Shown one piece after another: positions 1,156 to 59,866 of a stretch of DNA of 64,000 nt. The position numbers and the translations under genes are program-made. Each line of letters begins with the position of its first letter. The first letter of the stretch is position 1. Origin of the DNA: a bacterium (GTDB lineage Bacteria > Patescibacteriota > Andersenbacteria > UBA10190); assembly GCA_030698495.1 (NCBI GenBank), contig JAUYKA010000008.1, forward strand, positions 78,895 to 142,894, given 5' to 3'. Below the pieces are notes generated by a model that was not told the DNA's origin, made no database searches, and worked only from the letters and a program-made list of their open reading frames with translations.

Positions 1156-1167
1156 ATTTCTAAGATA

Positions 1168-3492: not shown

Positions 3493-3501
3493 ATACTATG
3501 C

Positions 3502-4665: not shown

Positions 4666-4675
4666 AGTTTAAGAT

Positions 4676-5416
4676 TTAAGATTGGTTAATTTTACGTTCT
4701 TGTTTTTTAATGCGCCTAATGAGTGGCCAAATACGAAAAGCAGATTTTATTAAAGTCCAAGTAGACAACTTGCTGCCGTCCTGCGATGTCCAACGAATTG
4801 GAACATTGGCAACTGAATATTGACGGCGGACGGCACGGTAAGCAATTTCGGTATCAAAAAGCCAGCGGGGTTCTTGTAGGCGGTGAAATAGATCAACAGC
4901 CACATGGCGGCGATATCCCTTGAAACCGCACATAGTGTCAACCTTACCCAAGTGAAATAGCCGCATATATGTCCGGTAAGACCAGCCGCTAAGGCGACGC
5001 AGGGCGGAGTGACGTTGGGTCACGGCGCCGGGCAGCCAGCGGTTACCAACAGCAATATCGTGCGAGGCAAGCGCATTTATCATTTTAGGAAGTTCACCGA
5101 TAGGAGTAGCTCCGTCGGCATCCATGAAAACGATATAATTGCCGCGGGAGGCCGAAACACCGGTTTTGACAGCAGCGCCTTTGCCCAGGTTCACTTTGTG
5201 GGACAAGACACGCATGGGTATGCCAGACTTTTTTAAGCGATCGGGAATAGTTTTGGTTTGATCGGTTGAGCCATCATCAACGATAATTATTTCGCGTATT
5301 TGGTTTTGGTGTCGTTCGTAGTAGTGAATTACATCGCGCAAGAATTTATTGAGGCGTTTTTCTTCGTTATAGGCCGGGATTATAAGAGATATTTTGGGCT
5401 CTTTTAGCATGCTCAA
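4676..5416 (-). CDS. glycosyltransferase family 2 (dolichyl/polyprenyl-phosphate sugar synthase-like)
   Basis: 246 aa; IIPAYNEE ... VDDGSTDQT ... DADG motifs (GT-A fold DxD). Confidence 0.75.
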   Translation of the reverse strand: MSMLKEPKISLIIPAYNEEKRLNKFLRDVIHYYERHQNQIREIIIVDDGSTDQTKTIPDRLKKSGIPMRVLSHKVNLGKGAAVKTGVSASRGNYIVFMDADGATPIGELPKMINALASHDIAVGNRWLPGAVTQRHSALRRLSGWSYRTYMRLFHLGKVDTMCGFKGYRRHVAVDLFHRLQEPRWLFDTEIAYRAVRRQYSVANVPIRWTSQDGSKLSTWTLIKSAFRIWPLIRRIKKQERKINQS

Positions 5417-5523
5417 AGAGTAGCAAGGACGGCGAGTTCAGTAAATACAGTGTATACAGTAGATACGGCTCAGCGTTGCCTGTTCTTGCGTGTAAATAAT
5501 TTGCCTGTCATTATGAATTTATT

Positions 5524-7311
5524 ATGTGGTTGACAATAATTATTTTAGCTGCCGGATCACTGGCGGCGGCAGGTGTTTTATTTAAGCAGGAACGGGTGAT
5601 TGTTTGGTTGGCATGTGCCGGCGTTTTAGCGGAAGGCCAATGGATGTTGTTATCGTTAATTAAACGGACATTAGCGCCCGGCATTAACGAAGAGTGGTTC
5701 TTTTTGGCTGGTGCTATAGTGCTTACTCTTGTTTGGGGCGCCGGATGGCGGAAATTTAAGTTACCCGTCTTCGGAGTGAATTGGTGGATGAAGGAAGGGG
5801 TGGTATTGTTATTGATCCTTATTACCGGTGCCGGGGCATGGCTAGTATGGTCGGTTAATGGCTGGGATGACGGCCAATGGGTGACACATGGATTTTTAAA
5901 TGGGGATACGACTACTTTCACGGCTCTGGTTCAGCGTTCTTTCGATGAGCCTGGATTAGTGAGCGCCAACCCATTTGCGGCCGGAGAAAATTTGGAATAC
6001 CCGACCGTTTTGCACGGAGCGGTAGCGGATTTCTTATTAAGTATTAAGGCGGAAGGTAAACTGCTTGCTTATCTGAAATGGTTTACCTACGGGCAGATTG
6101 CATTAACAATACCTTGTTTTTTCTTGTTGTTAGATATTTTTAACCCGGAACCGGCGGAAAAGTGGCAGCGCTGGTATAGCTTAGTAAGCAGGCGGGCGGT
6201 TCTTCTGTTGCAGGGAGGAGTAGTCTTGTATGTTATGGCTTTGTCGTGGGACGGATTTGTTTATCCGCAAAGTCATTTCTTTTTAACTGGTCTATACATA
6301 CTGACAGCCTCACTTTTGTTGTCGGCGGAACGACAATCCGGTAGAGCGCAGTTTCTGATGGTTGCAACGGGTAGCGTGACGGCGTTACTGCTATTACTGT
6401 CTAACGCGGTTATGGGCACGGCCGCTGCAGGTTTGGTAATTATATTTTACTTAACGCGCGCCATGGACAAAAAAAGAAGTGTGCCAGAAAGAGCGACGTG
6501 GTTGATTGCGACATTGATTTGGCCGCTGGTATTTATAACAGCTACACCCGGTAATGGTTCTTTCGGCGTACCAGGGTTTTCTTATACGGCAGCTGGCGAC
6601 ATGATAAGATTGGCGCCAATACTGTTTTTGTTATTTGCCGTAGTTTTAGAAAGAATTTCACGCAATACATTAATGAGTAGCTGGGTAATGGGATTATCAT
6701 CGATCGCGTTAATAACATTTGTTTTCTCGACCAGAGATATTGTAGTAGCTAATTCGGCCCGTTTTTTTTACCAGGCTATTTTAGTAGTTTTTCCTTTGTT
6801 AATTTATAGCGTCATTAGGATTTGGTATTGGCTGAAACGAGAGTTGATATTTTCAACACGCTCTGTGGTAGAGACGGTAAGCGGATGGGCTGGGGTAACC
6901 GTGCTGGGGGTTTTAATATTAATGCCGGCGGCGGCAAGCATAGTCAGTGCCCACGATAATCTTCAGCGTAAAGATCAGCAAATTATCAGTAGAGGTCAGG
7001 TTCAGGCAAGTGCATGGCTAAAGAGTCATACGGCAACAGAAGTGGTGTGGCTGGCGCAGCCGAATGAGCCATGGATTATTCCGGCAATGACGGGAAGATC
7101 AATGCTGCGTACCGATTTTTGGCTGTCACCGGAGGATAGTACATTTTCTAGTGTTAAAGCGGCTTTGGCTGGTGATTCTCGCGCGCGTAAAGAGATTTTA
7201 GAAAAAGTTGACTATGTCTGGCTAAACAGGGAGGAAGCAAACAGGTGGGGAGGGACGACGGGGGAAAAGGTCTTTGATGACGGTGATGTTATTATTTACA
7301 AAACCAGGTGA
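5524..7311 (+). CDS. polytopic membrane protein with C-terminal soluble domain, putative membrane glycosyltransferase/polymerase
   Basis: 595 aa, many TM helices, divergent from GT2 gene; no recognised motif. Confidence 0.3.
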   Translation: MWLTIIILAAGSLAAAGVLFKQERVIVWLACAGVLAEGQWMLLSLIKRTLAPGINEEWFFLAGAIVLTLVWGAGWRKFKLPVFGVNWWMKEGVVLLLILITGAGAWLVWSVNGWDDGQWVTHGFLNGDTTTFTALVQRSFDEPGLVSANPFAAGENLEYPTVLHGAVADFLLSIKAEGKLLAYLKWFTYGQIALTIPCFFLLLDIFNPEPAEKWQRWYSLVSRRAVLLLQGGVVLYVMALSWDGFVYPQSHFFLTGLYILTASLLLSAERQSGRAQFLMVATGSVTALLLLLSNAVMGTAAAGLVIIFYLTRAMDKKRSVPERATWLIATLIWPLVFITATPGNGSFGVPGFSYTAAGDMIRLAPILFLLFAVVLERISRNTLMSSWVMGLSSIALITFVFSTRDIVVANSARFFYQAILVVFPLLIYSVIRIWYWLKRELIFSTRSVVETVSGWAGVTVLGVLILMPAAASIVSAHDNLQRKDQQIISRGQVQASAWLKSHTATEVVWLAQPNEPWIIPAMTGRSMLRTDFWLSPEDSTFSSVKAALAGDSRARKEILEKVDYVWLNREEANRWGGTTGEKVFDDGDVIIYKTR

Positions 7312-7916
7312 AGCACTACTGGGACGATTGGGTTGTTGAGACTGACCTTTACGGCGAATTGGACTTGAGTGAGTGTGCTTTAATCAAACAAGCACACGGG
7401 AACAAAATTATTGTTCGTCAAGATATTGATTCCGGTTCAGTGGGTGACGGCATTATAACCACCGGGGAATCGGCGGCTATTTATACGGCCGATTGCTTGC
7501 CGTTGGTATTACTGACCAAACAAATGGCCTTGATTCTTCATGTGAGCCGAAAATCTTTAGTTTGTGGTCTTCTGGAAAAAGCGGCGGAAAAAATAGATGG
7601 TTTGCCCGAGACGGATGTCGCGGCATATATAGGCCCCCATATATGTCGGCGGCATTTTGAGTTCGCCTATCTGGGAGAGGAAGCGAAGAGGTTTACACTA
7701 AAATATCCGGATAGTGTTTATCGCCAAAAGGGTAGCTGGTATTTTAGCTTAAGACGGGCTGTTGGCGGTTACCTGACCGGATTAGGTGTAAGCCGGGTTA
7801 TCGAGGATGGTAGATGTACTTACGAAGAAACCGCGTTAGCTTCTTACAGGCGTTCCGGATGCCTTAAAGGTAAGTCAGTAAAACAGAATATTACAGTGGT
7901 TAAACGACGCTTTTGA
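7308..7916 (+). CDS. pgeF: PgeF/YfiH family (DUF152) peptidoglycan editing factor / purine nucleoside phosphorylase-like
   Basis: 202 aa; ADCLPLVLL, HVSRKSL, GPHICRRHFEF and C-terminal CTYEETALASYRR match YfiH family conserved blocks; ATGA-type overlap with upstream gene. Confidence 0.75.
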   Translation: MKHYWDDWVVETDLYGELDLSECALIKQAHGNKIIVRQDIDSGSVGDGIITTGESAAIYTADCLPLVLLTKQMALILHVSRKSLVCGLLEKAAEKIDGLPETDVAAYIGPHICRRHFEFAYLGEEAKRFTLKYPDSVYRQKGSWYFSLRRAVGGYLTGLGVSRVIEDGRCTYEETALASYRRSGCLKGKSVKQNITVVKRRF

Positions 7917-24790: not shown

Positions 24791-24966
24791 GTTAAATAAA
24801 ATTATTTGATGGAATGCAAAATGCAAACTGTAAACTGCAAAATGACAATGCAAAATTAAAAAATACTTGAGATGTTAATTTGATCGTAAAACATTATTAA
24901 TTTTAATCTGTTATTTTGCAGTTTGCAGTTTGCATTTTGAATTATTGGGGTTATGCAGGACTACGA

Positions 24967-26568: not shown

Positions 26569-26650
26569 AAAACTATATTATAACAGATTGGGCCGCAGTG
26601 TAGGGTAAATAATTTTGGTGCTGCTTAGGTTATTTGCTAACTTGTGTTTT

Positions 26651-26850
26651 CTCCGGCGAGTGTCACTTTTCGCGGCACCTACTCCCGGCGACACCAGCCG
26701 TCGCTCACGAGCTATGGCCGGCAAGGCATAGTGCCCGCTCCAGCGGCGGTCGCTACTCGACTAAAAGCCTGTCATCCCCGCCTTTTAGGCGGGGATGACA
26801 GGCTATTAGACGGTCGCCGGGAGCAGGTACCACGAGTGACACTCGCCGCG
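26651..26850. repeat. GC-rich nested palindromic element (family member 2, most complete copy)
   Basis: Nested inverted repeats: CCGGCGAGTGTCAC (26653-26666) / GTGACACTCGCCG (26836-26848); CTCCCGGCGAC / GTCGCCGGGAG; central 16-bp perfect hairpin GCCTGTCATCCCCGCC-tttta-GGCGGGGATGACAGGC. Confidence 0.6.
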
Positions 26851-26971
26851 GGAGCGCCAGTGATGTGGCAATATTTAAAAAAACCAAATACGCTTTTAGA
26901 CTTTCCTGATTTACACTGCTTGAAAGACAGAAGAAAACAATTGTTGCTGATTTTTCGAGATATTAGTTAGC

Positions 26972-27937: not shown

Positions 27938-28169
27938 TATGAATTTCAATTTTGTATGGTTAAGGTTGAATTTTCAATCTTCAATTTCCAATTTTCATAT
28001 AATAGCCAATGACCAATTACTAAATACACCCTAGAATTGAATGTGATTTACATGGTTGAAAATTGTTAAATTGTAATTTATATGGAAATTGGAAATTGTG
28101 CATTGGAAATTTGTCGCTATTGCGACATATAGTTATATATCCTAGTCTATAGCGTTAAGCGAGTAATTT

Positions 28170-31270: not shown

Positions 31271-31451
31271 CTTAATGACAAAGTTCAAATGTCAAATGAC
31301 AAATTAAATCCAAAAATTTAAACGTCAAAAGATTCGTTTTTTGATATTTGTAATTTGACATTTGGATTTTGAAATTATTTGTATTTAGCTTATGGATGGC
31401 TTGAATGGCATAGTAGGAGCTGGAGTATAATTATTCGGGTATTATATAATT

Positions 31452-34024: not shown

Positions 34025-34229
34025 ATTGAGCTGTGGTTGTAAAGAATATTAACTCTTGATGATTTTTTTGTGTTTATATGAATAGAATAATTTTCAATTA
34101 TTAATTTCCAATTTTCAAACCTTTACGCCACCTGCTAAGAGTTACGCTGTTGTACGTAACATTTGGAAATTGGGTAATTGGGATTTAAATGGAAATTGGA
34201 AATTGATTAATTTGGTATAGAATGTCTTT

Positions 34230-39224: not shown

Positions 39225-40517
39225 TTGTATAATACCGACATGATATTCCTTTGGACCGCATTGGCACAATTGGGCGGTGTTATTGTCGCCTGGGGATGGC
39301 TGCTATTTTTGTTTTTGGCTTTATGGGTAGCCTGGGAGACTTATTTGTTTATCAAGCACGTTGATTATACTAATGCAATTAAGTGGACCTTTCTGGAAAT
39401 AACGGTGCCGGAGGATACACCGCAGACACCGAAGGCGATGGAGAATGCTTTTGATGTGTGGGGCGGTATTCATAAAGATCCGGATTTGATTGAAAAATAT
39501 TTTGAGGGATATTTTCTGGCTTGGTATTCCTGCGAGATTCAGTGCAAGCGAGATCAAGTACGTTATATTCTGGTGGTACCGACAGTGCACGCCAAATTTT
39601 TTGAAGGAGTAGTTTACGGACAATACTCGGCGGCACATGTTACGGAAGTAGAAGATTACACGCAGGAATATTCTTTTCGCGATTTGGAAAAAAAATATGA
39701 TTTATATGGCACGGAGATTGTGCTGGTTAAAGACGATTACTATCCGATTCGAACTTACCGCGAATACGAAGACACTTTTGCGGAAGATGATAAGTACGTT
39801 GATCCGCATCAGGCCCTAATTGAGGCGTACACGAATATTGGTGAAGGAGAGCAGTTTTGGGTACAAGTGCTGGTTAAGCCGGTGGCGGGGGATGACATAC
39901 AGAAGTGGGCGGATAAGGGGCAGGATAAAATTGCGGAAATTTCCGGGCAAAAGAAAGAAGTGCCGGAAGGAATTTGGGCGCAATTAAGTGGTTTACTGAC
40001 TAAGCTGCCGGGAGAGATCCTGGGGGCGTTCGTTAACGGTCCGACAACCCCGGAGGATAAGAAGAAAGAAGCGCTGGAACTGCGTTTTCATAATCCGGCG
40101 CAAGACGCGGAAATGAAGGGGATACTGCTAAAGGTATCGCATTCGGCATATAAGACTAAGCTCCGGTTGATTTACATTGCGCCAGTGGGAAAGCTGGATA
40201 AACCCAGTATTTCTAAAGCAATCGGCGTGTTTAAACAGTTTAATACTTTTCATCTTAATTCTTTAAAGCCGGATCCGGCGACGAAAACTAACGGGCCGAA
40301 TTATGTGCTGAAACAATCGCGCCGACACTTCCGTAAAAAATCGGTGCTGCTGAACTATCAATGGCGAGATTTTTGGGGAGATGAGAGCGGACAAATGTTG
40401 GTGGCGGAAGAGTTGGCGACGTTGTATCATTTGCCGGTTAAGTACCTAAAGTCGCCGGTCGTACGTCATTCTCCTTCCGGCTTAGGCAGCCCGCCGGATA
40501 ATTTACCTTACGTCTAA
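39225..40517 (+). CDS. membrane protein (2 N-terminal TM helices + large soluble domain), partner of downstream TraD/VirD4-like ATPase
   Basis: 430 aa; MIFLWTALAQLGGVIVAWGWLLFLFLALWVAW TM hairpin; 10-nt gap to ATPase gene. Confidence 0.4.
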   Translation: MYNTDMIFLWTALAQLGGVIVAWGWLLFLFLALWVAWETYLFIKHVDYTNAIKWTFLEITVPEDTPQTPKAMENAFDVWGGIHKDPDLIEKYFEGYFLAWYSCEIQCKRDQVRYILVVPTVHAKFFEGVVYGQYSAAHVTEVEDYTQEYSFRDLEKKYDLYGTEIVLVKDDYYPIRTYREYEDTFAEDDKYVDPHQALIEAYTNIGEGEQFWVQVLVKPVAGDDIQKWADKGQDKIAEISGQKKEVPEGIWAQLSGLLTKLPGEILGAFVNGPTTPEDKKKEALELRFHNPAQDAEMKGILLKVSHSAYKTKLRLIYIAPVGKLDKPSISKAIGVFKQFNTFHLNSLKPDPATKTNGPNYVLKQSRRHFRKKSVLLNYQWRDFWGDESGQMLVAEELATLYHLPVKYLKSPVVRHSPSGLGSPPDNLPYV

Positions 40518-40527
40518 CGGTTCTTTT

Positions 40528-42267
40528 ATGCCCGAAGACAGTGAAAATGAAATAAACATTTTAGGCCAGACTAATTTTCGCGGTCAGCACCGGCAGTTTG
40601 GCATTTATCCCGATGATAGGCGCCGACATGTTTACGTGGTTGGGAAAACGGGAGTGGGCAAGTCCACCCTGTTGGAAAACATGATTGCGCAGGACATTAT
40701 TCATAACAAGGGGGTTTGTCTGGTTGATCCGCACGGGGATACGGTGGAACGTCTGCTTAACGCGGTGCCGCCGAGCCGGATTAACGACGTGGTGTATTTT
40801 GATCCGTCCGATGTGGATTGGCCGGTGGCATTTAATGTACTGGAGGCAGTAGATCCGGCTTATAAATATCTGGTGGCGTCGGGGCTAGTCAGCTCGTTGA
40901 AGAAAATGTGGGCGGATTCCTGGGGGCCGCGGCTGGAGTATATTTTGCGCAATACGATTTTAGCGTTACTGGATTATCCTTCCAGCACAATTTTGGGTAT
41001 TCTGCGCATGCTTTCCGATAAGACTTACCGCAAAAAAGTGGTTGATAAAATTTCCGATCCGGTAGTGAAGAGTTTTTGGACAAATGAATTCGCCAATTAT
41101 AACGAGCGCTTCCGCACGGAAGCTATTTCGCCTATTCAGAACAAAGTGGGTCAGTTGTTAAGCTCGGCGATTATCAGAAATATCGTGGCGCAACCCAAGA
41201 GCACTATTGATATGAAGGATATCATGGACAATGGCAAGATTTTACTGGTCAATATGTCAAAAGGAAAAATCGGTGAGGATAATTCCGGTTTGCTGGGAGC
41301 AATGATTATTAATCGGATTCAGCTGGCGGCCATGGACAGAGCCAGCATCCCCGAAGAAGAAAGGCGAGACTTTTACCTGTACGTGGATGAGTTCCAAAAC
41401 TTTGCCACGGAGTCTTTCGCGGATATTTTATCGGAAGCCAGAAAATACCGGCTGAATTTGACGGTGGCGCATCAATATATCGCGCAGATGGAAGAAGAAG
41501 TGACTGATGCCGTTTTCGGCAACGTCGGGACGATTGTCGCCTTTCGTGTAGGCGCGGCCGATGCTGAGTATTTAGAACAAGAATTCGCGCCAGTGTTTAC
41601 CCAAACCGATTTGGTTAACCTGGATAAATATAACGCTTATTTAAAATTAATGATAAACGGCATTAGCAGTAAGCCTTTTAGTATGCAGGCACTGCCGCCG
41701 GTGATGGAAAACTTCGGCAAAGGAGAAGTGGTAAGAATGGTGTCGCGCGAGCGTTTTGGCCATAAAAGGGAGATCGTGGAGGATAAGATCAGGCGCTGGA
41801 GCGGTATAGTACTGGGTGAGGCCGGAGAAGAACAAAGTGCACCGCAATATTCACCGCGATCATACAGCGGCGGCGAAAGAAGACCGGGACGCGGCCGACA
41901 AACGTCGACAGAAAGGCATGAGGCTAGGCAAGCGCCAGCGCAAATTAACAAGGAACAGTTGGCAGATGTGGTGCTGCCTATTTCGGCTAAACCAATTACG
42001 GATTTGGCGGCGGTGTTATCGCAGGGGCCGAACACAAGCAGTTCGACGCGAAGAGGCAGCGCGCGCGGTTTTGAAGTGATATGTCGCCGATGCGGCAAGA
42101 AGACCGAGGTGCCTTTTGATCCTGATCCGGCCAAGCCGGTTTATTGTAAGGAATGTTTCCAAATCGTAAGGCAAGAAAAAGCGGGGGAACGAGAGCGGAA
42201 AGTAAATACGGTTGACGCCAGGGTATCTAAACGATTTAGCGGTCCGCAACCGCCGGCATTGCCATGA
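40528..42267 (+). CDS. TraD/TraG/VirD4-like (type IV coupling-protein-like) P-loop ATPase with disordered basic linker and C-terminal CxxC...CxxC zinc ribbon
   Basis: VVGKTGVGKSTLLENMIAQDI ... LVDPHGD (Walker A + TrwB-like block); FYLYVDEFQNFAT (Walker B); RKYRLNLTVAHQYIAQM (TraG-D_C-like); C-term CRRCGKKTEVPFDPDPAKPVYCKEC. Confidence 0.55.
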   Translation: MPEDSENEINILGQTNFRGQHRQFGIYPDDRRRHVYVVGKTGVGKSTLLENMIAQDIIHNKGVCLVDPHGDTVERLLNAVPPSRINDVVYFDPSDVDWPVAFNVLEAVDPAYKYLVASGLVSSLKKMWADSWGPRLEYILRNTILALLDYPSSTILGILRMLSDKTYRKKVVDKISDPVVKSFWTNEFANYNERFRTEAISPIQNKVGQLLSSAIIRNIVAQPKSTIDMKDIMDNGKILLVNMSKGKIGEDNSGLLGAMIINRIQLAAMDRASIPEEERRDFYLYVDEFQNFATESFADILSEARKYRLNLTVAHQYIAQMEEEVTDAVFGNVGTIVAFRVGAADAEYLEQEFAPVFTQTDLVNLDKYNAYLKLMINGISSKPFSMQALPPVMENFGKGEVVRMVSRERFGHKREIVEDKIRRWSGIVLGEAGEEQSAPQYSPRSYSGGERRPGRGRQTSTERHEARQAPAQINKEQLADVVLPISAKPITDLAAVLSQGPNTSSSTRRGSARGFEVICRRCGKKTEVPFDPDPAKPVYCKECFQIVRQEKAGERERKVNTVDARVSKRFSGPQPPALP

Positions 42268-42338: not shown

Positions 42339-43025
42339 ATGAGGACAAGTAATCCTAACGAAAAATTGGTAGTTGATAAGCCGTTTGATTTTGCGGAGGA
42401 CGCTAATTGGCGAATTTTTCGTATAATGGCGGAGTTCATCGAGGGGTTTGAGTTCTTGGCGCCGTTACGCAAGGAAGTGACTTTTTTTGGATCAGCAAGG
42501 CTCAAAGAAGATTCGTATTGGTACAAACAAGCGCAACGGCTTGGTTATTTATTGGGTAAGAATGGTTTTACGGTAGTTACCGGTGGGGGGCCGGGGATAA
42601 TGGAAGCGGGTAACCGGGGCGCTTACGAAGCGGACGGACAGTCTATTGGGCTAGATATTGAACTGCCGACAGAACAAAGGCGCAATCCTTACATACGCAA
42701 AGGAATAGGTTTCCATTATTTCTTTACCAGAAAAGTAATGCTGTCGGCTTCAGCGCAAGCTTATGTGTTTTTTCCGGGAGGATTCGGTACGTTGGATGAG
42801 TTTTTCGAAATGGTGACGCTGCAGCAGACAAAGAAGATGGAGAACGTGCCAATTGTTTGCGTGGGACATGATTTTTGGGAGGGGTTAGATGACTGGGTGA
42901 AGAAAAATTTGGTTGAGAAATATAAAACGATTAATAGTGATGACAGCTCAATATATACGGTGGTAGATTCGGCAGAAGAAGCATTTGCTATTATCAAAGA
43001 CACAAAGGAGCGGAAGTATTTCTGA
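42339..43025 (+). CDS. LOG-family (TIGR00730) Rossmann-fold nucleotide-binding protein / cytokinin riboside 5'-monophosphate phosphoribohydrolase-like
   Basis: VTGGGPGIMEAGNRGA and PGGFGTLDE motifs. Confidence 0.8.
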   Translation: MRTSNPNEKLVVDKPFDFAEDANWRIFRIMAEFIEGFEFLAPLRKEVTFFGSARLKEDSYWYKQAQRLGYLLGKNGFTVVTGGGPGIMEAGNRGAYEADGQSIGLDIELPTEQRRNPYIRKGIGFHYFFTRKVMLSASAQAYVFFPGGFGTLDEFFEMVTLQQTKKMENVPIVCVGHDFWEGLDDWVKKNLVEKYKTINSDDSSIYTVVDSAEEAFAIIKDTKERKYF

Positions 43026-43121
43026 TCAGCGAGATAAGATATATAAGCCAGATAAGTCAATAAGCTGATAAGTTCTTATCTTGCTGATTTAGCTTATCTT
43101 GCTTATCTTACTGATATACAT

Positions 43122-44993
43122 ATGAGTGCAAGAATATCTAGCAACGACCTACGAACAAAATATCTGGATTTTTTTGCTAGTAAAGGGCATAAGGTAATTG
43201 CCTCGGCGCCGCTAGTGCCGGAAAATGATCCGACGACTTTGTTCACCGGTTCGGGTATGCAGCCGATGGTGCCGTATTTATTGGGACAAAGACACCCTTT
43301 GGGTAATCGGATAGTTGACGTGCAAAAATGTTTTCGGGCGGTTGATATCGATGAAATTGGCGATAATCGCCATACTTCTTTTTTCGAAATGTTAGGCAAT
43401 TGGTCTCTGGGTGATTATTTCAAAAAAGAACAAATTCCTTGGGTGCTGGAATTTTTAACGGAGGTATTGGGTTTAAATGCCAATCAGTTATACGTCACAG
43501 TTTTTCGCGGACGAGAAGATTTGAATATTCCCCGGGATGAGGTCAGTGCCGATATTTGGCGCGATGTTTTTCAGAAGAAGAGAATAGACGCTAAGGTGGT
43601 AGATTGGCCGGAAAAAGACGGGTTGCAAGGAGGGCGTATATTTTATTATGACGAAACAAAGAATTGGTGGAGCCGGTCGGGCGCACCAGCTGATATGCCG
43701 GTTAATGAGCTGGGCGGACCGGATAGCGAAATTTTTTGGGATTTTGGCGAAAATTTAGGTTTGCACGAAAAGTCGCCGTGGAAAGATAAGCCGTGTCATG
43801 TTAATTGTGATTGCGGTCGGTTTTTGGAGATTGGCAACAGTGTGTTTATGGAGTTTATTAAAACGGATAAAGGGTTCGCCGGCTTACCGCAAAAGAATAT
43901 AGATTTTGGCGGCGGTCTGGAAAGAGTGGCGGCGGCGTTAAATGATAATCCTGATATTTTTAAAATTGATTTGTTTGCCGATATCATTGCCTATGTTCAG
44001 GAGAAGAGTGGAGAAATATACGGACAAGATATTGAGTTGACAAATGCTTTTCGGGTAATTGCCGATCATGCGCGCGCAGTGACATTTTTAATTGCCGACG
44101 GGGCGGTGCCGGCTAATAAAGATCAGGGTTATTTTACACGCCGCTTGATCAGGCGAGCGGTTAGGTTTGGTTATACCCTTGGTTTGGAGGATCGTTTTCT
44201 GGCTGATATTGCCCGGATTATTAGCCGACAATACGAGAACGTATATCCGGCCATAGAGAAAAATATTGATGTTATTGCCGCCGAGATTACAAACGAAGAA
44301 AATAAATTTCGCAAAACATTAAAGTCAGGGCTGGAAAAGATCGAACAGTATTTGCAAAATACGGATAATATTAACGGGAAGCAGGCGTTTGAAATGTATG
44401 CCACTTTCGGGTTTCCGATAGAGATGTTGGTGGAAGAAGCGGTGGAGCGAGGATGCCAGGTTGATATTGACGGGTTTAAAAAAGAACTGAACAAACACAG
44501 GGATTTATCACGGACGGCCAGCGCGGGTAAATTCAAGGGCGGCTTGGCTGATCATGGCGAGATGACAGTAAAATATCATACGGCAACACATTTATTGCAC
44601 CAATCTTTGCGAACGGTACTCGGAGATCAGGTTGAGCAAAGAGGAAGCAATATCACGGCCGAGCGTTTGCGTTTTGATTTTTCTTATCCTAATAAGTTGA
44701 ACAACGATCAGTTGGCCGGGGTAGAGACTTTGGTAAACGAGAAAATTCAAGACGATTTGCCCGTTCAAAAAGAGGAGGTGACGGTAGCGGAAGCAAAAGA
44801 AGCGGGGGCGATCGGGTTGTTCGCGGCTAAATACGGAGAGAAGGTGAGTGTTTATTCAATCGGAGATTTTTCCCGGGAAATTTGTGGGGGACCGCACGTA
44901 GAGCGCACGGGGATGTTGGGACGTTTTAAGGTTATAAAGGAAGAGTCTGCCGGGGCGGGGGTACGACGGATAAAGGCAGTGCTAAAAAACTAA
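43122..44993 (+). CDS. alaS: alanine--tRNA ligase, short form (catalytic + editing domains, no C-Ala domain)
   Basis: N-terminus DLRTKYLDFFASKGHKVIASAPLVPENDPTTLFTGSGMQ; editing HTATHLLHQSLR and CGGPHVERTGMLG motifs; ends right after editing domain at 623 aa. Confidence 0.85.
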   Translation: MSARISSNDLRTKYLDFFASKGHKVIASAPLVPENDPTTLFTGSGMQPMVPYLLGQRHPLGNRIVDVQKCFRAVDIDEIGDNRHTSFFEMLGNWSLGDYFKKEQIPWVLEFLTEVLGLNANQLYVTVFRGREDLNIPRDEVSADIWRDVFQKKRIDAKVVDWPEKDGLQGGRIFYYDETKNWWSRSGAPADMPVNELGGPDSEIFWDFGENLGLHEKSPWKDKPCHVNCDCGRFLEIGNSVFMEFIKTDKGFAGLPQKNIDFGGGLERVAAALNDNPDIFKIDLFADIIAYVQEKSGEIYGQDIELTNAFRVIADHARAVTFLIADGAVPANKDQGYFTRRLIRRAVRFGYTLGLEDRFLADIARIISRQYENVYPAIEKNIDVIAAEITNEENKFRKTLKSGLEKIEQYLQNTDNINGKQAFEMYATFGFPIEMLVEEAVERGCQVDIDGFKKELNKHRDLSRTASAGKFKGGLADHGEMTVKYHTATHLLHQSLRTVLGDQVEQRGSNITAERLRFDFSYPNKLNNDQLAGVETLVNEKIQDDLPVQKEEVTVAEAKEAGAIGLFAAKYGEKVSVYSIGDFSREICGGPHVERTGMLGRFKVIKEESAGAGVRRIKAVLKN

Positions 44994-45129
44994 AAACGTA
45001 AAGCGTAAAACTCAAAACAACAACGAAAAAGTAAAAATATTCAGTGGCCGATATATGGAGTTTTTAGTGGTTATTTTAGTTTGAAGTTTTTCGTTTTAAG
45101 TTTAAGTGATTTGTCTATATACTTAGGTT

Positions 45130-46479
45130 ATGCGAGATATACGACCACAGGGGCCGCGACGGCGGCCAAACAGAATGATACCGCCCCCAGCGGGCGAAGC
45201 TATGTTTGCGGTGCCAAAGGCTAAATTGCCGGGCGCGAGAGTACCGATCGCCAATGTGCAGGTGCCCAAGCCGTCTATTAGTCGTCCGTCGATACCGGGC
45301 GGCGGCGGACCGGGCCAACTGCGCTCCAGTGGAAAGATAAGGTTGGGCCAGAGAGAGAAAACGGTGGTGGCCGTAATTGTCGGTTTGGCTATTATAGCCA
45401 GCTTGATTGGTGTTATTATTTTTTTGCCAACAGCCAGAATAGAGCTGTCGCTAAAAACGGCGCCGCTTTTAGTTGACGAGAAGATGATAATTAAGGCGCA
45501 GGCTGATAGTCAGTCTAACGAGGTTCCCGGAACGGCTTTTTTTAGAGAAGTAACGGTTGACGGTTCGAGCCCGGTGCAAAGTACGGAAGTAATAGGAAGT
45601 AAAGCGGCCGGGGAAGTATATTTAGTAAACAGAAGTTTCGACGAACAGAAGATTAAGGAGAACAGCAGGCTGGTAACCAAGGACGATCAATTATTTTACA
45701 TGAAGCAGGCAGTGACTATTCCGGCCGCTACCAGCGGCGGTCTGGCGCGCGTGCCGGTAACAGTAGAGGCGGCAGAGGCCGGGGAGGCGGGCAATATCGA
45801 AGCGCAGCGGTTGGATTTCGCGGCTCTGCCGGAGGCGGCACAAGCGCTGGTTTATGCCGAGGCAGATAAGCCGCTGGATGGCGGGAGAGGTGACGAGGTT
45901 AAAGTTATTAAAGATGCCGACCTGGAAGCGGCTAAGAAAACCGCGGGACAGCAAGCACGGGATCAGGTGGAGCAGGAAATCCGCGATCAACTACCCAAAG
46001 GATGGACAATAATGGAAGAAAGCTGGACAGTGGATCTGGAATCTTTTGATACGGAAGCAAAAACCGATAGCCGACAGGAGACCGTGTCATATCAGGCAAG
46101 AGCGGCGGTACATGTGTTTGGTTATGAAGGGGCCAAGTTAGAGAATAAATTAAAGGATGCCTTGACAGCACGCTTGGATGAACAATATATGCTGTTCCCG
46201 GGGCCAATTTCTTACACGAAAAGCGTAGAGAACATTGACTGGGAAGTTGGTGAGGCTGATATATCAGCACGCGTGACGCACACTACCGTCCCCAAAATAT
46301 CACTGGATGTTTTGCGGGAAAAGCTAGCCGGCCGATCAAAAAGTGAAACGAAACAATACCTAGAGGGATTAACGGGGGTGCAGTCGGCGCAGATTGATTT
46401 GTGGCCGTTTTGGGTGAATGTCGTGCCGAGAATAGCCAATCGAATCAATATCGATTTACAGCCAGATAGGCAACCGTAG
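45130..46479 (+). CDS. hypothetical bitopic membrane protein with Pro/Arg/Gly-rich N-terminal tail and large extracytoplasmic domain
   Basis: 449 aa; single TM (VVAVIVGLAIIASLIGVIIFL) after basic/Pro-rich segment; no recognised domain. Confidence 0.4.
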   Translation: MRDIRPQGPRRRPNRMIPPPAGEAMFAVPKAKLPGARVPIANVQVPKPSISRPSIPGGGGPGQLRSSGKIRLGQREKTVVAVIVGLAIIASLIGVIIFLPTARIELSLKTAPLLVDEKMIIKAQADSQSNEVPGTAFFREVTVDGSSPVQSTEVIGSKAAGEVYLVNRSFDEQKIKENSRLVTKDDQLFYMKQAVTIPAATSGGLARVPVTVEAAEAGEAGNIEAQRLDFAALPEAAQALVYAEADKPLDGGRGDEVKVIKDADLEAAKKTAGQQARDQVEQEIRDQLPKGWTIMEESWTVDLESFDTEAKTDSRQETVSYQARAAVHVFGYEGAKLENKLKDALTARLDEQYMLFPGPISYTKSVENIDWEVGEADISARVTHTTVPKISLDVLREKLAGRSKSETKQYLEGLTGVQSAQIDLWPFWVNVVPRIANRINIDLQPDRQP

Positions 46480-46490
46480 GGCGAAATTAA

Positions 46491-46551
46491 CTCCCGTGCC
46501 CAGCCGTCGCTAAAGCTATGGCCGGCACGGCGCGCACTAAGGCTGTTGGCC
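46491..46551. repeat. GC-rich palindromic element (family member 3, short copy)
   Basis: CTCCCGTGCCCAGCCGTCGCTAAAGCTATGGCCGGCACGG aligns to 26682-26726 (CTCCCGGCGACACCAGCCGTCGCTCACGAGCTATGGCCGGCAAGG). Confidence 0.55.
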
Positions 46552-47086: not shown

Positions 47087-47133
47087 AAGATCAATTTTCA
47101 ATTATCAATTTCCAATTTCCAAACATTAAGAAT

Positions 47134-50735: not shown

Positions 50736-50860
50736 GTGTCAGAAAATTTCTAATTTCTAATAACTAATTACTAATAAAATTTTAAATGTTTAACGCCAAA
50801 TTTTAAGCATTGGGCATTTTATTAGACATTAGTAATTAGGATTTAGTAATTACAGCCAAT

Positions 50861-52195
50861 CTATTGTTGTATTACTAAATCTGATTGATACAATCCGGTT
50901 TTGTTAGTAGTTTTCTTAAGGTAATAGATCATTTCTCCGTCAGTGCCGACAGCGGTTTGGGCGTTGCCGTTATTGGTGGTGGTAATTTGCTCGGAGATCG
51001 GGTGGTCACGCACATCGATTTCACTGATGATGATTTCGTCGTCTATTTGATAAATAAGGTGGCGACTGCCGGCAAACCATTGAATAGCGGTGATAGGGCG
51101 AGACAGTCTGGTAATAAATTGCAGGATCTGTTTTGGTAGGAAGCTGATTTCGTCAGTGGTGCTAAAAACATTTATGGTGTATGGATCGGTGGCAATAAAG
51201 AGAATGGCGCCGTCCGGAGACCAGCCGGCATAAGCGCTGGATGAACTGATTAATACCGGCTGATTAGATTCATTAAGATACCACACGCCGGTGTCTTTGG
51301 TTGTATAGGCAATGTTGCCTGATGGAGTAATAAGCAGTTTGACTATTTTCTTGTCGGGAGAAGGGATATTAATATTTTGCGGGCCTCCGGATAAGTTGAA
51401 GACATTGATGATATTATCCTCGCTAACGGTGTATATGTACTTATTGCTGGTAGCGAATATGTTTACTTGTTTAGCAATTATTTGCAAGGCGCCGGTAGAA
51501 GCGTTATAGGCTTTTAGACTGCCTGCGACATCAGTGAATAACAAGCGATTTGGCACAACCGGATCCCAGATGGCATCGGCGGCGCCGTTGAGGGTACTTA
51601 ATAATATAGGCGAAGAAGCGCCAAAATTATTAACCAACCAGTAGTTATTCTTGTTATGGAGAAGCAGCGAAGCGCTGTTGGGAGACCACAGGACGGTTTG
51701 GGGTATGGTTGTTAGCGCTTGGCTATCCACGATAGGGTGACTATCTTGATCGATAACGGAAAGATGAAGATTGCTTGATATATAGGCAATAAGTTTGCGG
51801 TTGGGAGACAGCGAAAAAAGAACCGCGTCTTGAGCCAAGGGATGGCTGTCTATATTGGCCGGGAATAAAACGATGTCGGACAAGTCGGCGGCCATACCCG
51901 GTTTTATGGCAATATTTTTACTCCAGGAGCGATATTCCCGCAGAGCTAGCGAAATATTAACATTGCCGGCAATCAGGTTGGGGAGAGTTTTAGGTGTCTT
52001 ACCGGCTGGTTTGTCATTAATATATATAGAGGCACGGCTTGGCTTGCTTTTAACTAGAGCGACCCCGATAGGCAGGGGGTCAATATTTTTTAAAGTGGCG
52101 CGATAACCGATAGCGTAAAGAACCACTAGAGGGGTTAGAGCGATGAAAATTACCAAGGTTATGAAAAGTAGGGCGCGCCGGTATATTTTTTGCAT
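50861..52195 (-). CDS. N-terminally membrane-anchored beta-propeller-like (TolB/PD40-like repeat) protein
   Basis: 444 aa; N-terminal TM (ALLFITLVIFIALTPLVVLYAIGY); repeated short beta-strand-rich segments with Asp/Gly turns; no catalytic motif seen. Confidence 0.4.
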   Translation of the reverse strand: MQKIYRRALLFITLVIFIALTPLVVLYAIGYRATLKNIDPLPIGVALVKSKPSRASIYINDKPAGKTPKTLPNLIAGNVNISLALREYRSWSKNIAIKPGMAADLSDIVLFPANIDSHPLAQDAVLFSLSPNRKLIAYISSNLHLSVIDQDSHPIVDSQALTTIPQTVLWSPNSASLLLHNKNNYWLVNNFGASSPILLSTLNGAADAIWDPVVPNRLLFTDVAGSLKAYNASTGALQIIAKQVNIFATSNKYIYTVSEDNIINVFNLSGGPQNINIPSPDKKIVKLLITPSGNIAYTTKDTGVWYLNESNQPVLISSSSAYAGWSPDGAILFIATDPYTINVFSTTDEISFLPKQILQFITRLSRPITAIQWFAGSRHLIYQIDDEIIISEIDVRDHPISEQITTTNNGNAQTAVGTDGEMIYYLKKTTNKTGLYQSDLVIQQ

Positions 52196-52245
52196 AGGGG
52201 GACTATGCCTTATTGTAGCATTTTTGTAAATGAGAGGGATGCGAT

Positions 52246-52357
52246 CGAGGATGGCTGCCTATTTGGTTTTGACGCCAAATTTCTCATGCTTATTTTTACG
52301 TTAAGGTATTCCGCCGGCACGGCAATGGCGTCAAAACCAAATAGGCAGCCATCCTCG
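52246..52357. repeat. 31-bp perfect inverted repeat flanking a 50-nt spacer (GC-rich palindromic element family member 4)
   Basis: CGAGGATGGCTGCCTATTTGGTTTTGACGCC (52246-52276) is the exact reverse complement of 52327-52357; spacer contains GCCGGCACGGC also present in copy 3. Confidence 0.7.
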
Positions 52358-52443
52358 GACTATGTTAATTTTACCCTTTGCATTTACGAAAATCTGGGGT
52401 GAAGAGAACGGGGGTGACTTGATTTTGGGGGTTGGTTGACGGT

Positions 52444-53706
52444 ATGCTTAAATTCATGTCGCAATTTGTCATCCAAGGCGGGCGGAAGCTATCCGGGGTT
52501 ATTCCAGTTTACGGGTCAAAGAACGCGGCGCTGCCTTTGCTGGCGGCCAGTCTTTTAACGGAAGAGGAAGTGATTTTGCATAATATTCCGGAGATATTGG
52601 ATGTTAAGAAGATGTTGGAAATTATGCAGGCGATGGGAGTGAGTGTGATTAGTGAAGGAAACGAGTGCCGGATAAAAGCGGAGAAGATTAACGAGAAGCA
52701 GGTACCGCGGGATAGGGTGGGACACCTGCGCGGTTCCGTATTGTTACTGGGTGCTTTATTGGTCCGATGTAAGCGGGTGGATCTGCCGATGCCGGGAGGA
52801 GACGTTATCGGTGCGCGACCGATTGAAGCACATTTGGATGGCCTGGCGCAGTTGGGTGCTAAAATAGACGTCAACGACAGCGGCGTGAGCGTGGACGGAT
52901 CGGACATGAAAGCCGGCGAAGTGGTGCTAAAAGAGTTTTCCGTTACGGCGACGGAAAATATTTTGTTGGCCGCGTCGCGTTTGCCGGGAAAAACAACTAT
53001 TTATATTGCGGCGGCCGAACCGCACGTGGCGGCGTTGGCGGAGCTGCTGAATCAGATGGGGGTGAAAGTTTCAGGAGCTGGAACGCATACTATTATCGTC
53101 GAGGGTAAAGAAGAATTAAGCGGAGCAGAGTTTACAAATATTCAGGATATGTTGGAAGCCGGTTCGTTTATTTTATTGGCGGCGGCGACGGGTTCAGCTG
53201 TTACCGTGCAAAACGTGCCGCTGTTTGATTTGCGCCTTTTTTTAAAGAAGCTGGCGGATATTGGGGTGGATTTTCAGATTGACGATCATAACGTAATGAT
53301 TAAGCCGTCTCGCTTGAAAGCTTTTAAGATACAGACTCTGCCGTATCCGGGCATGCCTACCGACCTACAGGCAATGTTCGCGGTAGTGGCAACGCAGGCA
53401 CATGGAGCCAGTTTGATTCACGACCCTATGTACGAAGGGCGGTTTAAATATATTGATGAGCTGATTAAAATGGGGGCCAACGCCACGATGTGTGATCCGC
53501 ATCGCGTTATAATCGAAGGGCCGACGCGATTGCGCGGACGCCATATAAAAAGTCTGGATATTCGTTCCGGCGTTACTTTGATTTTGGCCGGTCTGGCGGC
53601 GGATGGCGAAACAGTGATCGACGGTGCGGAAATTATTGACCGAGGATACGTAAATTTAGAAGAAAGGTTAAAGGATATCGGCGCGGATATTATTAGACGA
53701 GGATAA
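52444..53706 (+). CDS. murA: UDP-N-acetylglucosamine 1-carboxyvinyltransferase
   Basis: MLKFMSQFVIQGGRKLSGVIPVYGSKNAALPLLAASLLT matches MurA N-terminus; EPT-family length; ATG at 52444 preferred over upstream TTG. Confidence 0.85.
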   Translation: MLKFMSQFVIQGGRKLSGVIPVYGSKNAALPLLAASLLTEEEVILHNIPEILDVKKMLEIMQAMGVSVISEGNECRIKAEKINEKQVPRDRVGHLRGSVLLLGALLVRCKRVDLPMPGGDVIGARPIEAHLDGLAQLGAKIDVNDSGVSVDGSDMKAGEVVLKEFSVTATENILLAASRLPGKTTIYIAAAEPHVAALAELLNQMGVKVSGAGTHTIIVEGKEELSGAEFTNIQDMLEAGSFILLAAATGSAVTVQNVPLFDLRLFLKKLADIGVDFQIDDHNVMIKPSRLKAFKIQTLPYPGMPTDLQAMFAVVATQAHGASLIHDPMYEGRFKYIDELIKMGANATMCDPHRVIIEGPTRLRGRHIKSLDIRSGVTLILAGLAADGETVIDGAEIIDRGYVNLEERLKDIGADIIRRG

Positions 53707-54721: not shown

Positions 54722-54923
54722 ACAAATATATACGTTTTTTGAGATTTAAAGGTAAAACGTAAAACGAAAAAGGCAAAACAACATCATAAAAACTAAAAAC
54801 ATAACGACAAAAATTCGTTGTTATTTTTTGCTTTTTCTTGTTGTTGTAAGTTTTACGTTTTAAGTTTTACGTTTTTGATTATTCTACTTGCTACGTGCTG
54901 CTAGTGTCAGTTATCATGCCTAG

Positions 54924-56071: not shown

Positions 56072-56407
56072 GTGAAATATTCTCTGCAAGCGGAAAATTT
56101 AACAGTGACAGAAGCGGACAGGCTGTTATTAGAGAAAAAGATTGGCCGTCTTAAGAAACTGCTGCAGCCACCTTATATGGCGGATATTAGGTTTTGGCAT
56201 GACACTCACCATATCAAGGGTGAGGTTGTTAACTGTGTGATGAACGTTAAAGAAGGGAAGAGAGTATTTCATAGCGAGCGCGTCGGCGACAGTATGCAGA
56301 AGGCATTGGACGAATGTTTGCAGGCGATTAAGAGCGAGATTGCAAAAAATCACGGGAAGGGCAAGAGGCGTCGGTTTTGGTGGAGTAAGTTGGCGAAAGA
56401 AACGTAA
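56072..56407 (+). CDS. hpf: ribosome hibernation promoting factor / RaiA (S30AE family)
   Basis: 111 aa; MKYSLQAENLTVTEADRLLLEKKIGRLKKLL ... HSERVGDSMQKALDECLQAIKSEIAK matches HPF beta-alpha-beta-beta-beta-alpha pattern. Confidence 0.65.
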   Translation: MKYSLQAENLTVTEADRLLLEKKIGRLKKLLQPPYMADIRFWHDTHHIKGEVVNCVMNVKEGKRVFHSERVGDSMQKALDECLQAIKSEIAKNHGKGKRRRFWWSKLAKET

Positions 56408-56570
56408 AACTGAAAGCGAAAAACTTAAAATAACAACTTAAAACTCAAAACAGTTGTCAAGCTGGCGGTGGGAATTTTTTGTTTTATACTGTTGTTTTTC
56501 GTTTTGCGCTTTACGCTTTAAGTTTTCTGTGCTTTTGACAAGCGCCTATTTAGAAGTAAGGTGTAGTATA

Positions 56571-59207: not shown

Positions 59208-59264
59208 GGCTTAACTTATACATAGCTTACTGAATTAATCTCCGCCGGGTGAACCCTACTTAGC

Positions 59265-59408
59265 CTTACCACTCCTTCCTTCTGGCGGCACACTTGCCCG
59301 CCCCAGCGGCGGGCTGCGCTCGACTTATGGCCTTGCCACTTTGCCCATAAGGCAAAGACCAGGCTGGCAAGGCCATGAGACGGCCGCCAGAAGGAAGGAG
59401 TGGTAAGG
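59265..59408. repeat. 26-bp perfect inverted repeat enclosing 93 nt with nested palindromes (GC-rich palindromic element family member 5)
   Basis: CCTTACCACTCCTTCCTTCTGGCGGC (59265-59289... checked base by base) is the reverse complement of GCCGCCAGAAGGAAGGAGTGGTAAGG (59383-59408); interior GCCCGCCCCAGCGGCGGGCTGCGCTCGAC is homologous (24/29) to 26746-26774. Confidence 0.7.
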
Positions 59409-59539
59409 CTAGGCGCCTGCGGGCGCCACCCGCCGCGATTGTTGGCATAATATGGGTATAATTTATGTAATTAATTAGCGCGGAGCGACCAGGTGATATA
59501 ATGTAAACGTCATGATTTCTTAAATTTTTGCCTATTTTT

Positions 59540-59593
59540 AATATAAATAAAAAAGACCAGTTACCTATACGCCTTTCGACTTGGTAACTGGTT
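59540..59593 (-). terminator. orphan minus-strand rho-independent terminator
   Basis: 10-bp stem ACCAGTTACC / GGTAACTGGT (59556-59565 / 59583-59592) with 17-nt loop; on minus strand followed by TCTTTTTTATTTAT; no minus-strand CDS upstream of it. Confidence 0.55.
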
Positions 59594-59866
59594 GGGCTCA
59601 AGGTCAAGCTTCTGCGGGCGATTATTCGTCCGGAGAAGTGGTTACTTAAGCCCGGGAGCGTCTGGAAGGCCTGATCTCCCCACCGAGCTGGCCTTTGTGT
59701 GTTAGCACACAACCTCCAGGCTGGGACTTTCCCATCACTCGGCCTGTGTGAATATTTATAGATAAAATACAATTAGTCAAGTATATTGCCTAATAAACAT
59801 GGTGGTTAGTTGGGTGTTATACTTTAGCTACTGGGTTCTAATTTTTTTGACCGATTTTAAAAAGAT

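Follow-up and report, generated by a model that had tools for sequence, protein, structure and literature searches.

A 112-bp unit with perfect 32-nt inverted repeats between a PEGA-domain gene and murA in an Andersenbacteria genome, tentatively read as a MITE-like insertion

Introduction

How a long and perfect inverted repeat came to lie between two divergent cell-envelope loci, and whether it does anything for the genes on either side, is the question raised by a 112-bp unit located upstream of murA in a 64-kb stretch of bacterial DNA (hereafter the window, that is, the whole stretch that was analyzed). The membrane protein encoded on the other side of the unit was named by one source as a protein of Candidatus Andersenbacteria (CPR/Patescibacteria). 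Here, we describe the anatomy of the unit, its presence in independent sequence data, the corresponding loci of related organisms and the promoter candidates and folds around it, and weigh the different explanations of its origin against these observations.

Results and discussion

Position and anatomy of the inverted repeat

The unit is flanked on the left by a gene for a PEGA-domain and beta-propeller membrane protein (50,861–52,195, minus strand, 444 aa; named PEGA domain-containing protein and called the PEGA gene below) and on the right by murA, which encodes UDP-GlcNAc enolpyruvyl transferase (52,444–53,706, plus strand; EPSP_synthase, 1.9e-79). The start codon of murA is either the ATG at 52,444 (Logan gene call, 420 aa) or that at 52,456 (NCBI gene call, 416 aa); the 5' region shared by the two genes measures 248–260 bp, and a gap of 98 nt separates the unit from the murA start. 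A preliminary description of this DNA, made from the sequence alone, had placed the repeat upstream of murA between gene ends that were 'convergent or divergent', and had given it 31-bp arms and a 50-nt spacer. The coordinates bear out the location upstream of murA and show the two genes to be divergent, not convergent (PEGA gene, minus strand; murA, plus strand). The perfect repeat was also found where it had been reported, but its arms measure 32 nt and its spacer 48 nt.

On the plus strand to the right of the unit lie murA, mreB, a GT4 glycosyltransferase gene, a gene for a ribosome hibernation factor and secA, and the rest of the window holds a dcw-type cell-wall cluster, many glycosyltransferase genes and a ribosomal-protein operon. 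Pfam scans of the main ORFs of the window revealed neither a transposase nor a site-specific (tyrosine or serine) recombinase, and the window contains no tRNA and no match to Rfam at gathering thresholds. The unit itself has no coding capacity: a 70-aa ORF across it had no Pfam match, and no gene is called there on the NCBI or Logan contigs. Mirror-image ORFs of 17–18 aa (MAAYLVLTP...) starting in each arm were also considered and rejected, as they are forced by the symmetry and have no spaced ribosome-binding site. Elsewhere in the window, a VirD4/TraG-like coupling ATPase with a treble-clef zinc finger (40,528–42,267, within the region 39,225–42,267) is adjoined by a 430-aa protein without a Pfam domain, and a 449-aa protein (45,130–46,479), likewise without a Pfam domain, is encoded between alaS and infA.

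The two arms of the repeat occupy positions 52,246–52,277 (left; CGAGGATGGCTGCCTATTTGGTTTTGACGCCA) and 52,326–52,357 (right); both are 32 nt long and 100% complementary to each other. The 48-nt core between them (52,278–52,325) is AT-rich in its left two thirds and carries at its right end a small GC hairpin, GCCG-GCAC-GGC (52,313–52,323), which is present in both RNA and DNA folds. GC content is 53% in the arms and 42% in the spacer, against 47% in the window. Even when up to three mismatches were allowed, the arm sequence occurred in the window at these two sites alone, and none of 100 shuffles produced a match.

Outside the perfect repeat lies a second, imperfect one, whose left arm (52,220–52,238, overlapping the −35 box of the PEGA gene) pairs with a right arm at 52,374–52,393 (CCCTTTGCATTTACGAAAAT) at 17 of 20 positions, with one gap (3 mismatches in 20). 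When the left flank was aligned locally with the reverse-complemented right flank, this outer symmetry scored 23 compared with 11.8 ± 1.9 in shuffled sequences, only one of 500 of which reached the observed score; it includes a 13-nt block (92%) and is paired in the DNA fold. The gaps between outer and inner arms are unequal, with 7–8 nt on the left and 16 nt on the right. The contrast between inner arms that match at 32 of 32 positions and the decayed outer symmetry suggests, on sequence grounds, two ages along the palindrome, which in turn suggests either a young unit placed in older palindromic DNA or an inner part that has been homogenized. In both cases, arms without a single mismatch imply that the event is recent or that homogenization continues.

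The junctions of the unit with the surrounding DNA (..GCGAT/CGAGG...CCTCG/GACTA..) show no direct repeat of at least 3 bp abutting its ends, and the sole remaining possible target-site duplication is a 2-bp palindromic CG within the inverted repeat. An 8-nt direct repeat, GGACTATG, does occur at 52,200–52,207 and 52,357–52,364, but its left copy does not abut the end of the unit. A long target duplication of the flanks was rejected, since their direct similarity lacked significance, with 56 of 500 shuffles scoring at least as high.

Presence in independent assemblies and reads

The element is not an assembly artefact. A 6.7-kb contig of the NCBI assembly GCA_034372665.1 spans it with identical sequence and with the spacer in the same orientation. 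In two Logan runs (SRR13727534 and SRR26726065), the contigs on the PEGA side end 30 nt into the left arm, and those on the murA side (L026 and L027) start with the last 30 nt of the right arm. Logan assemblies use k = 31, and such symmetric contig breaks are the expected behavior of a de Bruijn graph at a true inverted repeat of at least k, which means that the element is real in the reads. None of these contigs differs from the window (100% identity), and they thus represent independent reads of one population rather than independent lineages. It should be noted that perfect palindromes of 44–55 nt, apparently artefactual, do occur at contig ends in public metagenome-assembled genomes (L012, L013 and L019), so that a chimeric palindrome created during assembly or library construction had to be considered. 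We regard it as barely conceivable here, because the element is internal and has intact conserved genes on either side, the second assembly is identical and the k-mer graphs of two further read sets break symmetrically.

The palindromes at contig ends were themselves recorded as a side result: L012 (49–158), L013 (19–137) and L019 (74–191), from unrelated public assemblies, carry perfect palindromes with 44–55 nt per arm at no more than 200 nt from the contig ends. They look like assembly artefacts and can serve as a negative control for inverted-repeat findings. A search for strain variants by way of identical MurA and MreB proteins returned the same population only. Separately, the metagenome-assembled genome GCA_034376345.1 (L011) differs from positions 1–7,776 of the window by five substitutions in 7.8 kb, which indicates at least two close strains. 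The repeat also has a practical consequence, as a perfect 32-bp inverted repeat breaks k = 31 assemblies here in every sample examined and leaves fragmented genomes of this organism.

Orthologous loci and searches for relatives

Synteny between murA-mreB-GT4 on one side and PEGA-rpsI-rplM on the other is kept at seven Andersenbacteria loci. The intergenic region upstream of the PEGA gene at these loci is 61, 61, 61, 87, 118, 126 and 199 bp long compared with 260 bp here, with murA confirmed as the neighbor for the relatives with spacers of 61–126 bp, the 199-bp locus not being among them. The longest perfect inverted repeat at the seven loci is only 4–10 nt, in comparison with 32 nt in the window. 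Short spacers without a comparable repeat identify the 112-bp element as lineage-specific extra DNA. The nearest PEGA homolog outside the population is 43% identical, so that these are only distant orthologous loci whose intergenic DNA cannot be aligned with that of the window. Comparison with orthologous murA upstream regions had been put forward together with the preliminary description as a way of checking it, with a lack of conservation in related genomes as one half of what would speak against it; nothing similar was seen at the seven loci, and, judging from these sequences, the element is not conserved upstream of murA.

Relatives of the element were also sought more widely. No k-mer of the element of at least 13 nt recurs in the 64-kb window, and no other copy of an arm or of the spacer is present there; the proteins encoded at the window ends led to short contigs only. 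The 23-mer of the arm had no exact match in GTDB species genomes or JGI metagenomes, nor had the 18-mer in IMG/VR. With an outer 20-mer of the arm, a single chance match was obtained in JGI metagenomes, on a contig that is eukaryote-like, ends in a G4T4 repeat and lacks an inverted repeat. A pattern of the 11+11 terminal nucleotides gave nine unrelated matches in GTDB genomes, three of which were contig-end palindromes, and a blastn search of plasmids and phages in distant mode found nothing. Taken over GTDB, JGI, IMG/VR, plasmids and phages, neither a cognate autonomous insertion sequence (IS) nor any relative with the same ends was found; the collection scans used exact words of 18–23 nt, with which diverged relatives could be missed. 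The literature offered nothing usable on MITEs in CPR bacteria or on the lower size limit of invertons.

Promoter candidates around the element

The PEGA gene is preceded by a probable promoter, TTTACA-17-CATAGT (52,202–52,230, minus strand), which ends 6 nt before the ATG and lies outside the 112-bp element; 15 bp separate its −35 box from the left arm, which lies further upstream. In the window and at four other loci (L004, L005, L023 and L008), a CATAGT-like box precedes the PEGA start codon by 6–8 nt, and the longer pattern TTTAC(A/T)-17-CATAGT is common to the window and L008, where it reads TTTACT-17-CATAGT. The PEGA promoter is thus probably proximal and would give a leaderless or near-leaderless mRNA. 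As a side observation, the maintenance of a CATAGT-like −10 box across distant Andersenbacteria suggests that leaderless mRNAs occur in this group.

In the direction of murA, the sole sigma-70-like site is TTGACG-16-TATTTT (52,269–52,296, plus strand), a consensus match only, with its −35 box in the left arm and its −10 box in the spacer. Three sigma-70-like sites were counted in 600 bp compared with 1.0 expected, which is not significant alone. The −35-like box is present in identical form in both arms. Since the murA-ward site starts inside the element, a transcript from it would carry one arm only. Both neighboring genes point away from the element and no terminator-like site was detected at it or after either arm, so that it does not qualify as an intrinsic terminator.

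Folding and the possibility of an RNA

When folded as RNA, either strand of the element forms one long hairpin (−70.3 and −69.8 kcal/mol; z = −9.6 and −10.3), and the whole intergenic region folded with DNA parameters gave −50.1 kcal/mol (z = −7.6). The expectation of a very stable hairpin in single-stranded DNA or RNA is thereby supported by both kinds of fold. A further step, namely that the hairpin is transcribed and regulates murA, was implied by the preliminary description and is not favored by our data, with the PEGA promoter outside the element and the murA-ward site inside it.

On the basis of fold stability, a transcribed hairpin (a small RNA, an RNase III substrate or a structure in the murA 5' untranslated region) deserved consideration, the more so as a G-rich Shine-Dalgarno-like stretch at murA and the 98-nt gap would allow a longer leader. 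However, the two genes diverge, and the probable PEGA promoter is conserved and close to its gene; on neither strand is the whole arm pair preceded by a sigma-70-like site, the only murA-ward site would yield a single arm and neither arm is followed by a terminator-like site. Moreover, no family of Rfam 15 matched the element at its gathering threshold. At E ≤ 10 solely eukaryotic miRNA-precursor models were returned, far below threshold, and these matches are generic because such models fit any long hairpin. The element thus belongs to no known RNA family, and there is no conservation or covariation at the seven orthologous loci. We consider a transcribed hairpin RNA quite unlikely.

A cis-acting role at the DNA level appears unlikely too, if a little less so. 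Two identical 32-bp protein-binding sites, or a cruciform or insulator extruded by the negative supercoiling that arises from divergent transcription, might tune murA and the PEGA gene from a position exactly between the divergent promoters of two cell-envelope loci; the AT-rich left part of the spacer would favor melting, the hairpin of the single-stranded DNA is very stable and the sequence is invariant in three data sets. These data sets, however, come from one population, so that invariance tells nothing about selection, and the seven orthologous loci manage with 61–199 bp and no comparable inverted repeat. Physical considerations also speak against it: a 48-bp center strongly disfavors cruciform extrusion, and with 80 bp (∼7.6 helical turns) between them, the arm centers do not have the phasing that simple looping requires. 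In addition, operators are, to our knowledge, essentially never perfect at 32 of 32 positions.

Origin of the unit

The explanation that we prefer, although we hold it tentatively and at somewhat below an even chance, takes the 112-bp unit for an orphan foldback insertion of the MITE type, which has its effect as DNA if it has any at all. Its source would be a transposon with terminal inverted repeats, of which it is a relic or an internally deleted derivative, and it would have landed in this lineage in the gap that separates two back-to-back core promoters, that of the PEGA/beta-propeller gene and that of the murA-mreB operon. Such an insertion would space the two promoters ∼110 bp further apart, would probably be mostly neutral and may donate an inward promoter of the transposase type (TTGACG in the arm, TATTTT in the core) toward murA.

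Several observations point to this origin. The anatomy is that of a MITE, with terminal inverted repeats (32 nt, 100%) bounding a small, non-coding unit, and the unit is extra DNA relative to the seven syntenic loci. The putative PEGA promoter has been spared, as its CATAGT box and TTTACA −35 box lie at least 15 bp outside the left arm; the non-uniform age of the palindrome is suggestive of a young unit in older DNA; and the candidate TTGACG-16-TATTTT promoter spans the junction of arm and core, as transposase promoters do in many IS ends. That Rfam holds no family for it beyond the generic miRNA-hairpin models fits as well. The reading is weakened by the single copy, by the missing target-site duplication of at least 3 bp and by the lack of a transposase in the window; the IS or relatives with the same ends that would be expected of a MITE were not found in the collections scanned with 18–23-nt exact words.

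Among known systems, the Correia elements of Neisseria (nemis/CREE) and the pneumococcal RUP are similar to the unit: they are ∼100–150 bp long, non-coding and intergenic beside promoters, carry long terminal inverted repeats (∼26 bp there), can donate promoter boxes and form a long hairpin if transcribed. They differ in that they are present in tens to hundreds of copies, generate a TA duplication and form recognizable families, whereas only one copy was seen here, with no duplication of at least 3 bp and with no relatives in the searched collections.

The same weaknesses are strengths of a different origin, local inverted duplication. Here, replication would have switched templates, by quasi-palindrome correction or by fold-back priming, and copied 32 nt of the native intergenic DNA in inverted form. 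In a variant of this proposal, the inner part of an older imperfect palindrome was made perfect. In either form, the result would be a neutral structural by-product without function. We give the two forms jointly a real but clearly smaller likelihood. Only one copy across everything that was searched, no target-site duplication, no transposase and an element composition (arms 53%, spacer 42% GC) like the 47% of the window all agree with it, as does the nesting of a perfect inner repeat in an imperfect outer one, because partial correction of a palindrome produces such a nested structure. On the other hand, removal of 32 nt would still leave a spacer of 228 bp compared with 61–126 bp in the distant relatives with confirmed murA neighbor, neither arm is demonstrably native and a distance of 48 nt from donor to copy is long by the standard of classical quasi-palindrome events. 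Known products of this kind resemble the unit in being perfect inverted copies near their template, in single copy, without duplication and nested in an imperfect palindrome. They are usually described for shorter arms and loops, and no ancestral state is available at this locus.

If the unit is a MITE-like relic, it is one modest indication that palindromic mobile DNA still enters streamlined CPR genomes, and it would show that DNA of this sort can settle between the promoters of essential cell-wall genes and perhaps rewire them. It is an object of an ordinary kind, a palindromic insertion, in an unusual host, and we found no evidence of a conserved function. Only one reading, of low probability, would make it important, namely a mini-inverton: by flipping the 48-bp core, a site-specific recombinase would point the TTGACG/TATTTT promoter either at murA-mreB or at the PEGA gene. 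One promoter redirected between murA-mreB and the PEGA/beta-propeller gene would then amount to phase variation of an episymbiont envelope.

This proposal is very unlikely in our view, although the locus has some of the expected features. Perfect inverted repeats flank a promoter-like −10 box and carry the same −35-like box in both arms, the cell-envelope neighbors are usual targets of phase variation and recombination between the arms would maintain their identity. In addition, k = 31 assemblies cannot resolve the orientation of the core, so that flipping would go unseen in them; the junctions of a flipped core would read TTTTGACGCCA and then TTGCCGTGCC. Against it, both assemblies that span the element share one orientation, the promoter match is at chance level and no recombinase is found among the annotated genes of the 64 kb (Pfam, main ORFs of the window), although one could lie elsewhere in the genome. 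The arm centers, 80 bp apart, are at or below the shortest working distances of well-studied recombinases, which is ∼82 bp for Cre-lox. Of published inverton sets, it is said only that most members are shorter than 300 bases. Well-known invertons (fimS, hin and the Bacteroides capsule promoters) likewise have inverted repeats bracketing a promoter-like box near envelope genes, but the 48-bp core is far smaller than in these classical switches, no recombinase is nearby and the second orientation was not seen. For a minimal inverton with 80 bp between arm centers in an ultra-small CPR bacterium, served by a recombinase encoded elsewhere, we see a very slight chance.

Other structured repeats in the window

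The preliminary description had also pointed to an internal block, GCCGGCACGGC, common to the inverted repeat and an element at 46.5 kb. The match itself is present (46,521–46,531), but kinship between the two did not hold up, as the similarity is at chance level: the block is one of nine 11-mers of the element that recur in the window (blastn-short E = 2.3). It falls within a 30-nt module, CAGCCGTCGCT.A.AGCTATGGCCGGCA.GGC, which the 46.5-kb stretch (46,500–46,531) shares with a different element of the window (26,694–26,727; 90% identical, E ∼0.01).

The latter belongs to a pair of homologous GC-rich structured elements of ∼210 nt, e26 (26,646–26,860) and e59 (59,235–59,445), situated in non-coding gaps. 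They are 72% identical and have a GC content of 64% compared with 47% in the window. Of 52 predicted base pairs, 14 are maintained by changes in both partners and not one is broken, and folding gave z-scores of −12.7 and −11.6. Among the conserved blocks are TCTCCG.CG.GTG, GCCCGC.CCAGCGGCGG, CTCGACT and GAGACGG.CGCC, and e59 holds a perfect inverted repeat of 29 nt. No Rfam match was found for the pair, nor any relative in IMG/VR or in eleven fetched loci; a covariance model built on the two, searched against the window and the eleven loci at E ≤ 10, recovered its own two members (and their reverse strands) only. The same model was used to examine a relationship between the 52.2-kb repeat and the 46.5-kb element, and this was rejected, as no match at 52.2 kb appeared at E ≤ 10. 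The 46.5-kb element was not matched by the model either, although, given the common module, it may be a fragment of the e26/e59 family.

The e26/e59 elements resemble the 52.2-kb inverted repeat in being intergenic and self-complementary, but differ in their 64% GC, length of ∼210 nt and multi-stem fold. They probably represent an undescribed family of structured RNAs or mobile elements, and are probably more intriguing than the 52.2-kb repeat. ORFs of 108 aa and 168 aa (26,644–26,970 and 59,266–59,772) overlap these GC-rich elements; the 108-aa ORF over e26 has no Pfam match, and both are probably not genes. In the same part of the window as e59, a candidate small RNA gene of ∼190 nt was noticed on the minus strand (59,540–59,750). 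It had no Rfam match at E ≤ 10; its predicted fold has an energy of −85 kcal/mol (z = −4.9) and it ends in a clear stem-loop followed by a T-run.

Finally, the window contains a series of intergenic hairpins formed by tandem repeats, mostly of period 7 (for example, AATGCAA ×6 facing TTTGCAG ×4), which are AT-rich and 71–89% complementary. They are located at 24,813–24,943, 27,969–28,111, 31,273–31,377, 34,100–34,207, 43,024–43,109 (period 9), 44,985–45,107, 50,745–50,852 and 54,748–54,875, and two further tandem arrays, at 47,090–47,122 and 56,400–56,451, have no listed inverted partner. These hairpins share with the 52.2-kb inverted repeat their intergenic location and strong self-complementarity, but are of low complexity, AT-rich and imperfect. 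Most of them are situated at or just beyond the 3' ends of genes, and similar tandem-repeat motifs are present in the murA-PEGA spacer of two relatives (L021 and L022). They are probably the usual terminator or spacer hairpins of this lineage.
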